From: Escherichia coli O157:H7
GTDB lineage: Bacteria; Pseudomonadota; Gammaproteobacteria; Enterobacterales; Enterobacteriaceae
NCBI RefSeq assembly: GCF_013167455.1
Contig: NZ_CP038328.1
Reading direction: 5' to 3' (one strand)
DNA length: 64,000 nucleotides
Below, piece after piece: positions 54,001-57,000 of this stretch; position 1 is the stretch's first letter, and the number at the start of each line of letters is the position of its first letter. Made by a program: the position numbers.

Positions 54001-57000
54001 ATAACCCAGCCGCAGCCCAGCGGAGCCAGACCGAATTTGTGGCCTGAAGCACTGATCGATTTCACACGCGGCAGGCGGAAGTCCCAGACGATATCCGGGG
54101 CGACGAACGGTGCCAGGAAGCCACCACTGGCGGCGTCGATGTGCATGTCGATGTCGATACCGGTGTCGGCCTGGAATTTATCCAGCGCATCGTGCAGCGG
54201 TTGCGGGAACTCATAGTTACCGGTGTAGGTCACGCCGAAAGTCGGCACCACGCCGATGGTATTTTCGTCGCAGGCTTCAATCATGCGTTTCGGATCCATA
54301 AACAACTGACCGGGGCGCATAGGGATCTCACGCAGCTCCACATCCCAGTAGCGGGCGAATTTATGCCAGCAGATTTGCACCGGGCCGCACACCAGGTTTG
54401 GTTTATCCGTTGGTTTGCCTGCAGCTTCCATACGCTTGCGCCAACGCCATTTCATCGCCATCCCGCCGAGCATACAGGCCTCGGAAGAACCAATGGTGTT
54501 GGTGCCAACGGCCTGACCATTTTTCGGCGCAGGCGCATGCCACAGATCGGCAACCATATTTACGCAACGCAGGTCGATGGCTGCAGATTGCGGATATTCT
54601 TCTTTGTCGATCCAGTTTTTGTTAATGGATAAATCCATCAACTTGTGGACGTTTTCGTCGTCCCAGGTCTGGCAGAAAGTGGCCAGGTTCTGACGAGCGT
54701 TGCCATCAAGATATAATTCGTCATTGATAATCTGAAATGCGACATCGTCGCGCATTTCGTGCAGCGGAAAACGTTTTGATTCTGCGATAGTGGAAATAGA
54801 CTTCGCACCAAAACGTGAATCGAGTAGTTCCGACCTTAAATCCGTTACTTGCTTCTTATCCATTTTAAACTCCTTAAAATGATTGGATCGCATTAAAAAA
54901 GTAGGATTTATCGATAAAGTAAGCAAGTGCAAAGGACTCGTGTTTAAATAACAAAATCCTAATGTTATTTATGGTGAGATATTGCGTGAATAATATTTTT
55001 TATTGAAAAACAATATAGTAGGGAGCTCTTGGGTGGTAGTAAGGTGTTTTATGCTGTTATTTTTATGCGTATTCTGTGCCTCCTGAATTATCACGTAAAA
55101 ATCAGACCTTAAAATATCACTATTAGTACGCGGTTATTATTTTGAACGCATTTATAAAATTATTACATAAAAATAGCGAATATTGCTAAAATCCCCGCCA
55201 ACGATGTGTTGACGGGGCTGTTATTATTTTGGCAATAATACTCCGGTATAAGTATTTACCGGATGAGAAAGATATTGTTTAACGGCAGTGTTAACATTCT
55301 CTACCGTCATTTGTTTCAACAATTGCTCCTGCTCAGTCCATGCTGCAGGATCGTCATATTGAATAAGACTATTTACAATAGTGTTCGCTAATTGTTGAAC
55401 GCTACGCTGTTGGATATCGAGGCTGCGCTGAACGTTTTGCTGGTATTCGTTCAGTTCTTGCTCACTGATCCCTTTAGTCAAACGCTTAACCATCACTTCA
55501 TTCGCTAACGTTAACAGTTCATCATGTCGTTCTGGTTGACAAGTAAAAGCCAGCAAATGACTGATATCTTTAGCCTGAGGATCAACCGAGAGGCGAGAAG
55601 AAACGCTGTATGCCCCAGATGCCTGTTCACGAATATTAACGCGTAGATCTTTTGCCAGTGCGACGTTAAAAGCATCGAGCGCCATACGCGTCGCCAGATT
55701 AACAGGTGTCCGGGAATCATAACGCTTCCACTGTGAAACCTGTGCCACAGGTTCATTTTGTTCCTTTACAGTAACCGATGCGTTGTCCGTCGCGCGAGTT
55801 AATGGTTTACCTGCGGCTAATGGCGAATCAGAGTGTTTGATTGATCCTAAGTAACGCGTAATTAACGCCACGAGTTTGTCTTCTGCGACATTACCGACAA
55901 TGACAAACGTGATATCCGCTGGAGATGAAAACAACTGGCGATCGGCAGCCAGCGCATCTGCGGCAGTAAACTGTGCAATCTGATTTTCTTGCAGTAATTT
56001 CGTGCGGTCATCAGCATAGCGCGTCTCATACATCTGCTGGGCGAATTTCTCCGCTGGACGCTGGTCGAGCGTTTTCAATGCCTGAATTTGAGCATTTTGT
56101 AGCGATGCCCAAATATTGTCGTTAATCGTGCTGTGGGTGATTCGCTGGTTAATCAACTGAAAACCAGGTTCAGGGTTATTAGTCCGCGCGCTAACGGAGA
56201 GCAACGTATTCATGCCACTGACTTTACTGCTCATGGTTACCGAGTTTTCCGCACTCCAGCGTTTCAGGCTGGAAGAGGAGAGTTCGCCAACGCCGCTTCC
56301 GCTAACTGCTTTATTTGCCAGCGCGATAAGTGATTTTTGCTGCGCAGGGAAACTTAAATCGCCTTTATTCGATACGGCAATAATTTGTAGCTTTTGCTCT
56401 TCACCCGCGGATTTTGCCAGAATAACCCTTGCACCATTGGAAAGTGTTAATGATGTCAGATTCTCAGCCAGCGTTTCTTTGCTGCTAATTTCCGCCTGTG
56501 GGTCAGCGTCTACTGTTAACGATAAATTTCTGCCTGGGAAGATGTAAGCCGCCAGCTTTTTGTTGGCGTACTCCTTTTCCAGCGCCAGGATAGCCGCAGG
56601 AGACAATGCTTTTTTGGCGGCAACCTCATTGTTTACCATTTGCTCCCAAAATGCGTCCTGGTTCTTTCTTAACTGCTGCCATTTTTCCGCCAGACTTTGC
56701 ACGGTAATTTGCTGCCACAGACGTTTCGAAAGTTGATATGTCTCTTCCGGCGACAAGAACGGCGTATTATTTAATGAGCTGGATGCCAGGCGACTGGTCA
56801 GCATACGTAAATCACGTTCAGCTTGCTGATCAACCGCATTTTTCAGCCAGGTGAGGCGGGTAGATTTGACATCATCGAGTTCTTCAGCAGAAAAACCATG
56901 CTGATCAATGGTTGCCAACTCTTCCATTAATGCATTCGCAGCATCCTGCATATTATCGTCTCGTGCATTTACACGGAAAAACAGCGACTGATAATCGGGT

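Follow-up and report, generated by a model that had tools for sequence, protein, structure and literature searches.

Intercistronic stabilising hairpins are known to set unequal expression of the genes within one operon, examples being the REP elements in malE-malF and the hairpins of the puf and pap operons. Intrinsic terminators usually leave the RNA 3' end 7–9 nt after the stem. The GAD box in the gadA and gadBC promoters of E. coli K-12 is said to have been described by Castanie-Cornet and Foster in 2001 and by Ma and colleagues in 2003. On the gadA promoter of K-12, the only promoter to which the footprint, gel-shift and lacZ-fusion data apply, an RcsB/GadE heterodimer binds a GAD box that lies 16 bp before the -35 element, with its centre ~63 bp ahead of the transcription start (Castanie-Cornet et al. 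2010, PMC2887963). The asymmetric GadE site TTAGGATTTTGTTATTTAAA has been published (PMC4918353), and the GGA of the gadB Shine-Dalgarno sequence is a CsrA site, with toeprints there and in the early coding region and with translational repression (PMC11210196).

We analysed a window (the whole stretch of DNA under study, 64 kb) from O157:H7-type E. coli. It contains pqqL, gadB, gadC and digH in the same order as in K-12, all on the minus strand, as are all features described below unless stated otherwise; positions are those of the window. From the open reading frame list, we identified gadB (glutamate decarboxylase B, 466 aa; 53463..54863), a 100% match to the annotated gadB in O157 genomes and in K-12, and gadC (glutamate/GABA antiporter, 511 aa; 51772..53307), which matches annotated gadC; the two are separated by a spacer of 155 nt. 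The locus is the gadBC acid-resistance operon with a textbook promoter. The best combined explanation of what we found, which we put at roughly 80%, is a gadBC promoter activated by RcsB/GadE, followed by a hairpin after gadB (hairpin 1) that gives rise to a gadB-only RNA. An earlier note on this DNA had described both the promoter box and the intercistronic hairpin; both descriptions are correct, and both features are ordinary ones in a well-studied operon.

The gadB promoter

The exact GAD box reported in the earlier note about 80 bp before gadB is indeed present: TTAGGATTTTGTTATTTAAA, the site of the RcsB/GadE heterodimer, is found at 54943..54962 with 0 mismatches to the published sequence (PMC4918353), and its 3' end is 80 nt from the A of the gadB ATG (54863..54861). 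It is the sole match in the 64 kb even when up to 3 mismatches are allowed, and 0 of 100 dinucleotide-preserving shuffles gave a match. The earlier note had proposed comparison with the gadA box, and the K-12 gadA and gadB boxes turn out to be identical to each other and to the box in the window, down to the critical G in the left half-site. The box is also identical in an E. coli of a divergent lineage (L007), and one position differs in E. albertii. The 20-bp published site was taken as the reference because the GadE motif from ChIP-exo (TTARGAWWWWAAATA) missed the gadB box, which it does not match within 2 mismatches; this motif has 4 matches in the window, i.e., the chance level.

Downstream of the box, a -35-like hexamer TTGCTT (54921..54926), which is conserved in gadA and is the putative -35 element, is found at a distance of 16 bp, the same spacing as in K-12 gadB and gadA. 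The genes that follow are gadB and gadC, which are known as GadE-dependent. The promoter thus shares with the K-12 gadA and gadBC promoters the same 20 bp, the 16-bp spacing, the RcsB box and the downstream gene; the O157-type promoter differs from that of K-12 by ~10 scattered differences and one 1-bp gap further upstream, none of them in the box. Judged by identity of sequence and spacing, the gadB GAD box is the known RcsB/GadE activator site, on which one RcsB/GadE heterodimer would dock ~63 bp before the start and activate gadBC transcription. The confirmed box shows that the main acid-resistance operon of this O157-type strain is still wired as in K-12.

Other elements of the promoter and leader were placed by alignment or from the sequence. 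An RcsB box, CGATAAATCCTAC (54901..54913; a low-affinity RcsB repressor site adjoining the -10 element, with putative borders), was located by alignment with gadA, whose box GGATAAATCCTAC shows one G-to-C difference at the left end, a difference that has been reported (PMC2887963). The likely -10 element is TACTTT, with a C before the hexamer (54898..54903), after a 17-bp spacer from TTGCTT. Subtracting the published 63 bp from the box centre (54952.5) puts the probable transcription start at ~54890, followed by the 5' leader (54864..54889) with the ribosome-binding site AAGGAG (54870..54875). Further upstream, AGGTCTGATTTTTACGTGAT (55090..55109) matches the ChIP-exo motif of GadX/GadW, AKGKCTGWTWTTWWYMYVAK (PMC4918353), with 1 mismatch, and aligns with AAAGTCTGTTTTT of PgadA; no other site in the window comes within 2 mismatches of the motif (0.29 matches expected by chance). 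The neighbouring gene pqqL ends in a terminator hairpin with a 10-bp stem followed by AUUUU (55193..55217; ΔG = -18.6 kcal/mol, z = -4.9, 46-nt stretch folded), just past the pqqL stop at 55224, which we infer shields the gadB promoter from upstream transcription.

The hairpin after gadB

The perfect 11-bp stem-loop described in the earlier note between gadB and gadC was recovered by both folding and hairpin search at 53417..53442, as GTCCCGAAACG-AACC-CGTTTCGGGAC with the loop AACC. Including a flanking U-A pair, hairpin 1 has 12 bp (53416..53443) and starts 20 nt past the gadB stop. Folding of the 31 nt that run from the stem up to the mapped RNA 3' end (see below) gives ΔG = -20.0 kcal/mol, as compared to a mean of -6.2 in shuffles (z = -6.6), and none of 200 shuffles was as stable. 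In the whole window, 5 different hairpins have a perfect stem of 11 bp or more, as compared to ~0.1 expected from shuffles, and the other 4 are all at gene 3' ends. In stability, hairpin 1 equals the terminators of pqqL and gadC, the latter being an intrinsic terminator that forms the operon end (GGGAGCGAT-AATTC-ATCGCTCCC followed by TTTTT, 51718..51748, found by hairpin search and folding; ΔG = -18.8 kcal/mol, 46-nt stretch folded).

Using Term-seq data from K-12, we were able to assign an RNA 3' end (...GGGACAAUUU) to position 53412, 5 nt past the stem of hairpin 1. This end was mapped at K-12 position 1570594 (-) with a mean of 33,817 reads in M63 glucose (Adams et al. 2021, PMC7815308, supplementary file 1), and was transferred to the window by a coordinate offset of +1,517,182, the spacer being 100% identical from stop to start. 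The same M63 sample has 70,553 reads at the gadC terminator (K-12 1568900 (-), window 51718), counts that are not quantitative for transcript ratios. Both ends were called in M63 glucose only and not in LB, which probably reflects expression. We note that the Term-seq table labels the hairpin 1 end, which is the strongest direct evidence on this hairpin, as 'orphan', solely because its distance from the gadB end is 51 nt, one more than the cut-off of 50.

As in an intrinsic terminator, the stem is G+C-rich (11–12 bp, 7 G-C pairs) and an in vivo 3' end lies just past it in K-12; the U tract, however, is lacking, since the tail reads AAUUUCC and AAUUUCCA has 3 U in 8 nt. With only 3 U in this tail, efficient intrinsic termination at hairpin 1 is unlikely, and a terminator scan of the sequence did not call it. 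Compared with the intrinsic terminators of gadC and pqqL, hairpin 1 belongs to the same class of stem length and energy and has an RNA 3' end a few nt downstream, but it has AAUUUCC in place of their UUUUU and AUUUU, and it is located inside the operon, so that read-through is needed for gadC to be expressed. It also looks like an intercistronic stabilising hairpin, i.e., a stable hairpin in the spacer with the 3' end at its base; like such stabilisers, it follows directly after the upstream gene that is needed more and is itself followed by a gene for a membrane protein. Unlike REP stabilisers, it is single-copy in E. coli genomes, and it bears no evident resemblance to the REP consensus. A REP/BIME element was rejected, as the 191-nt region occurs once per genome (median of 1 place) and has no Rfam match.

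The closest paralogous case, the hairpin between gadA and gadX in K-12, likewise has ΔG of about -20 kcal/mol and lies ~20 nt past the stop of a near-identical gene, and gadX is reported to be partly co-transcribed with gadA. The sequence of the gadA hairpin is nevertheless unrelated to that of hairpin 1 (similarity between gadA and gadB ends ~7 nt past the stop), and the K-12 Term-seq table lists no 3' end at the gadA hairpin.

The earlier note had held that box and hairpin alike fit known acid-resistance regulation. This is true for the GAD box; for the hairpin, our full-text literature search found no paper describing it and no experiment on it, and the matches for a gadC 'stem-loop' concerned Lactococcus or yhiM. 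The hairpin is not annotated in K-12, the main text of Conway 2014 does not mention the gad genes, and an Rfam scan of 51000..56000 gave no match at E ≤ 1. Hairpin 1 is an element of an ordinary kind, so far uncharacterised and outside published gad regulation, and the earlier note was fair in not presenting it as a novelty. It is a small addition to what is known of gadBC and opens no new question in the field.

Hairpins after gadB in other genomes

Among 5,426 E. coli genomes, 5,405 carry the spacer as a single copy with 95–100% identity. Hairpin 1 is identical in K-12, and within E. coli it varies in the loop and the apical pair. In E. albertii the helix is kept with three pairs changed on both sides. 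The stem of one Escherichia assembly (L005) carries two positions that do not pair. A formal test of covariation within Escherichia was suggestive but fell short of significance, as many pairs as observed being reached by 34 of 500 shuffles, and the three double changes all come from one lineage.

We then surveyed other species, in which 55 gadB-gadC spacers from 34 genera had a length of 45 nt or more; the counts ignore shared ancestry. A strong hairpin (one matched by at most 1 of 50 shuffles) is present in 48 of the 55, and in 42 of them (26 of the 34 genera, shared ancestry again ignored) its start is no more than 40 nt from the gadB stop. These gadB-proximal hairpins have a median start of 17 nt and a median ΔG of -18.6 kcal/mol. 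Across genera their sequences are unrelated and cannot be aligned, and 4 of the 42 have a T-rich tail. Among other co-directional spacers of the same loci, such a hairpin is found in 16 of 39 (Fisher p = 6e-4). The recurrence of hairpins after gadB across many bacteria suggests, as far as sequence comparison goes, that the arrangement is selected.

Readings of hairpin 1

Most likely, hairpin 1 ends or protects a gadB-only RNA, and thereby provides more decarboxylase than antiporter message. It would act in RNA and not in DNA, folding during gadBC transcription and setting a stable RNA 3' end 5 nt downstream. This could happen by two routes: some polymerases may stop at the hairpin, which would then be a leaky intrinsic terminator whose U tract is poor, or the spacer may be cut, so that 3'-to-5' exonucleases enter and halt at the stem. 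By either route, gadB-only RNA would build up beside the full gadBC RNA ending after gadC, and the abundant soluble decarboxylase would be made above the level of the membrane antiporter. We infer an effect on the GadB:GadC ratio, for which hairpin 1 would offer a simple physical reason, namely unequal expression of gadB and gadC within one operon. In gadBC constructs for GABA production and in gadB or gadC reporters, dropping the spacer may shift the ratio of enzyme to transporter.

Each of the two routes can also be taken as the whole explanation. A pure RNA-stability element, which we regard as a serious possibility while holding it tentatively, would mean that gadBC RNA is cut in the A/U-rich spacer (e.g. 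by RNase E) and trimmed by exonucleases back to the stem, which protects the gadB RNA, while a second spacer hairpin (hairpin 2, see below) may cap the 5' end of the gadC fragment. The position of the 3' end 5 nt from the stem and the absence of a real U tract agree with this, as do the A/U-rich unpaired RNA GGAAAAUAUU between hairpins 1 and 2 and the recurrence across genera of hairpins that have no T tail. One Buttiauxella locus carries at the same place a putative REP-like element, the REP class being known to stabilise upstream RNA. The poor preservation of hairpin 2 in E. albertii argues against the stability reading.

A purely leaky Rho-independent terminator (attenuator), at which a fixed fraction of the polymerases is released at 53412 and the rest reach gadC, is possible, though we would not rely on it. 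The stem is G+C-rich and equals the neighbouring true terminators in stability, the 3' end coincides with the final U of AAUUU, and a full T-run terminator is found at the same place in Yersinia rohdei (L010), Serratia (L015), Proteus (L016), Citrobacter (L040) and Comamonas (L059). Against this reading, there are just 3 U, preceded by AA, with no call from the terminator scan; the distance of 5 nt from stem to end is shorter than the usual one and fits trimming; and 38 of the 42 comparable hairpins have no T-rich tail.

A palindrome that arose by chance, or is neutral and without function, is very improbable: no phenotype is known and the Escherichia covariation falls short of significance, but the number of such hairpins expected per window is far below one (~0.1), the palindrome is kept in ~5,400 genomes and varies only in its loop and apical pair, analogous hairpins occur in 26 genera, and an RNA end maps to this one. 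A role of the palindrome at the DNA level, where it would serve as a protein operator or belong to an internal gadC promoter, can hardly be credited; its perfect symmetry and its variable centre between arms kept within E. coli are often seen in operators, yet the palindromes of other genera are unrelated in sequence, E. albertii changes both arms in a compensatory manner, the RNA 3' end maps to the palindrome, and the spacer has no credible promoter (its one consensus match would put the transcription start within the gadC start codon). Equally hard to credit is a small regulatory RNA from the gadB 3' end with hairpin 1 as its terminator, which would account for a stable 3' end behind a strong hairpin where a coding region ends and has a precedent in the gad system (GadF, annotated after gadE in K-12), but for which we found no U tail of the kind seen in Hfq-binding small RNAs, no Rfam match, no K-12 annotation and no known internal promoter or processing site.

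The remainder of the spacer

Two further hairpins, absent from the earlier note, lie in the spacer before gadC, at 53351..53375 (hairpin 2) and 53322..53343 (hairpin 3). Hairpin 2 was found by folding as TTGTTCTGAA-TACGC-TTCAGAACAA, with a 10-bp stem and A/U-rich single-stranded flanks (ΔG = -12.2 kcal/mol, z = -3.6, 46-nt stretch folded), and is less well kept in E. albertii. On the plus strand, hairpin 2 followed by TATTTTCC was considered as an antisense terminator and rejected, with no plus-strand Term-seq 3' end there.

The 40-nt stretch between hairpins 1 and 2 is invariant. A more far-reaching reading, which we consider improbable, is that the hairpin after gadB, instead of being an incidental stem resembling a terminator, is a module of gadBC operons in at least 26 genera, conserved in position while its sequence can vary, with read-through or stability that depends on conditions (e.g. 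acid, growth phase, a protein or a small RNA), and that hairpin 2 and the invariant stretch belong to the same device. If this were true, cells could uncouple expression of the antiporter from that of the decarboxylase.

Hairpin 3 appears in the minimum-energy fold of the whole spacer only. In 7 Escherichia sequences, 7 of its 8 pairs are invariant and 1 pair is broken in one sequence, so they hold no covariation information. It is located directly before the gadC ribosome-binding site AGGGGGA (53312..53318).

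Hairpin 1 and the RNA 3' end after gadB

The earlier note described a perfect 11-bp stem-loop between gadB (53463..54863, minus strand) and gadC (51772..53307, minus strand), and we confirmed it at 53417..53442 (minus strand; hairpin 1, loop AACC). The helix reaches 12 bp if the flanking U-A pair is counted, and its dG of -20.0 kcal/mol (z = -6.6 against shuffles) matches the energies of the pqqL and gadC terminators. Hairpin 1 is far beyond chance: five perfect hairpins of at least 11 bp were observed in the window, as compared to about 0.1 expected per shuffled window. Each of the other four (29251..29279, 35005..35036, 38584..38611 and 51722..51748) follows a gene (yddG, fdnI, sra or gadC) at its 3' end and has the appearance of a terminator, probably a bidirectional one in the case of the hairpin between fdnI and yddM. 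Hairpin 1 itself was not listed by the terminator scan because the stem is followed by AAUUUCCAAAG, which has no U run, and Rfam gave no match at the gadB-gadC spacer.

This spacer (155 nt, from gadB stop to gadC start) is 100% identical between the window and K-12. Adams et al. 2021 (PMC7815308, supplementary file 1) list, in their curated Term-seq table, a 3' end at K-12 position 1570594 (minus strand), which corresponds to window position 53412; its flanking sequence, ...GTCCCGAAACGAACCCGTTTCGGGACAATT[T]CCAAAGTCTG (PMC7815308), puts the end at the final U of AAUUU, 5 nt past the hairpin 1 stem. In the M63-glucose sheet, this end has 33,817 mean reads and the gadC terminator 3' end (K-12 1568900, window 51718) has 70,553 reads (PMC7815308). 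The former is labelled 'orphan' only because its distance from the gadB end, 51 nt, exceeds by one base the 50-nt limit set for 'primary' ends. Both ends are missing from the LB samples of the table (PMC7815308), which we read as low gadBC expression in LB. No discussion of hairpin 1 or of the 3' end at 1570594 was found in the literature searched.

Folding of the spacer revealed two more hairpins, both absent from the earlier note: hairpin 2 (53351..53375, minus strand; 10-bp stem), which is flanked by A/U-rich RNA, and hairpin 3 (53322..53343, minus strand), immediately upstream of the gadC ribosome-binding site AGGGGGA. Taken as a whole, the spacer is more stably folded than its shuffled versions (z = -4.1). 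On the plus strand, hairpin 2 is followed by TATTTTCC and resembles an antisense terminator; no plus-strand 3' end at hairpin 2 is listed in the Term-seq data.

Post-gadB hairpins in other genomes and the origin of the RNA end

The spacer is single-copy and 95–100% identical in 5405 of the 5426 complete E. coli genomes, and the sampled E. coli variants of hairpin 1 differ in the loop (AACC, CACC, AAGC) or the loop-closing pair. Among seven Escherichia species/lineages, no part of the spacer varies more than the hairpin 1 region; the stretch that follows, about 40 nt long and reaching to hairpin 2 (53376..53411, minus strand; AAGTCTGTTCACTGGCATTAGCAA...), is invariant and could be a cleavage or binding site. 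E. albertii keeps the hairpin 1 helix with three pairs changed on both sides (all from one lineage), and a formal covariation test on the seven Escherichia sequences did not reach significance (34 of 500 shuffles gave at least as many pairs). At the gad locus of E. coli KC-Dl-1 from a beluga whale (L083, about 1480..1520), roughly 110 bp are deleted, among them the gadB stop codon and hairpin 1, so that what is left of gadB runs straight into hairpin 2; this gadB is annotated as frameshifted.

We scanned species-representative genomes with GadC, which gave 80 loci, 64 of them with gadB directly upstream on the same strand; the 55 gadB-gadC spacers of at least 45 nt made up the survey set. A hairpin reached by at most 1 of 50 dinucleotide shuffles is present in 48 of the 55, and in 42 of them, from 26 of 34 genera (including Yersinia, Serratia, Providencia, Proteus, Halomonas, Brucella and Acinetobacter), it begins no more than 40 nt past the gadB stop (median start 17 nt, median dG -18.6 kcal/mol, median distance to gadC 53 nt). 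As a rough control, such a hairpin is carried by 16 of 39 other co-directional spacers of the same loci (Fisher p = 6e-4), where the control spacers include real transcription-unit boundaries and the p-value treats loci regardless of phylogeny. The 42 hairpins are unrelated in sequence, and 4 have a T-rich tail.

Most likely, hairpin 1 acts in RNA, creating or protecting the 3' end at 53412, and a gadB-only RNA would arise beside the full gadBC RNA, thus giving more decarboxylase than antiporter message. The evidence leans slightly towards protection, i.e. a cut in the spacer followed by exonuclease trimming that hairpin 1 halts: the tail after the stem is short (5 nt), there is no U tract, and most homologous positions are without T tails. 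Weak termination at hairpin 1 would produce the same end, and the full terminators that a few genera have at the equivalent place lean that way. Hairpin 1 differs from a canonical intrinsic terminator in its missing U tract. A DNA operator, an internal promoter, a small RNA and chance were each judged unlikely for hairpin 1. Whether by protection or termination, hairpin 1, which is not a REP element, would work like an intercistronic terminator or stabiliser. The earlier note was correct as written in calling the GAD box and the hairpin no novelty; the sole addition is that an RNA end has been mapped at hairpin 1, uncharacterised in the literature searched, and that many genera carry a hairpin at the equivalent position.

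The K-12 paralogue gadA also has a strong hairpin downstream (L002, the K-12 gadA locus, 11125..11185, minus strand; GAATGCCCAGC...GCTGGGCATTC, dG about -20 kcal/mol), unrelated in sequence to hairpin 1 because the similarity of the paralogues ends about 7 nt past the stop codon; no Term-seq 3' end is listed after it. In Buttiauxella agrestis (L055), gadB is directly followed by TGTCGGATGACGCTAACGCTTATCCGACCTAC, which may resemble an enterobacterial REP element; REP elements are a class known to stabilise upstream RNA in operons. In loci from other Proteobacteria (L009-L074), GadC is 69–80% identical to that of the window and the adjacent GadB 51–64%, so conservation is stronger for the transporter than for the enzyme. 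This reverses the usual pattern and may point to a mosaic origin for the Escherichia operon.

GAD box and gadB promoter

The GAD box TTAGGATTTTGTTATTTAAA is an exact match at 54943..54962 (minus strand), the only one within the 64-kb window even if three mismatches are allowed, and none was found in any shuffled sequence. The A of the gadB ATG (54863) lies 80 nt downstream of its last base, in agreement with the distance of about 80 bp noted earlier. K-12 PgadB and PgadA carry the identical box, which forms the longest block of identity between their otherwise diverged upstream regions; a divergent E. coli lineage (L007) also has an exact copy, and the box of E. albertii has one differing base. 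For the RcsB box, the gadB sequence of the window is CGATAAATCCTAC and that of gadA GGATAAATCCTAC. On all criteria open to testing here, the box belongs to the GAD-box family, and Seo et al. (PMC4918353) agree with TTAGGATTTTGTTATTTAAA.

Castanie-Cornet et al. 2010 (PMC2887963) located the box upstream of the -35 element at a distance of 16 bp, with its centre 63 bp upstream of the start, and found that a G-to-C change in it abolished both binding and activation. In the window, TTGCTT (54921..54926) is exactly 16 nt from the box, and by the 63-bp rule the gadB transcription start is expected near 54890, with TACTTT (54898..54903) as its putative -10-like element. RcsB/GadE bound at about -63 would activate the gadBC promoter, as published. 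A GadX/GadW motif match (55090..55109, minus strand) has one mismatch and is unique in the window, and the CsrA-bound GGA motifs of the leader (PMC11210196) are present. The pqqL-gadB spacer, in which the pqqL terminator lies (55193..55217, minus strand), is A+T-rich (32% G+C versus 49% window-wide).

Genomic neighborhood of gadBC

The order pqqL (55224..58019), gadB, gadC, digH (50322..51641), all on the minus strand, is identical in K-12. Positions 53250..55300 match O157:H7-type chromosomes of E. coli at 100%, and strain 2017C-4109 is collinear with all 64 kb except for 8 mismatches and one 32-bp indel near 13,400, the sole length difference, which offsets coordinates before 13,400 by 32 bp from those of the annotated record. 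This annotated genome, nearly identical to the window, marks dosP (oxygen-sensing c-di-GMP phosphodiesterase; 46149..48538, minus strand) and nhoA (14833..15677, plus strand) as frameshifted pseudogenes; since the window has no gaps against the annotated record after 13,398, both frameshifts should be present in it. The same annotation gives a block of VgrG and RHS core proteins (about 5270..11650, plus strand), the T3SS effector gene espR1 with leucine-rich-repeat fragments (25174..27760, minus strand) and an intact OmpC-family porin gene adjoining yddG (27923..29023, minus strand), all of which are presumably insertions relative to the K-12 backbone.
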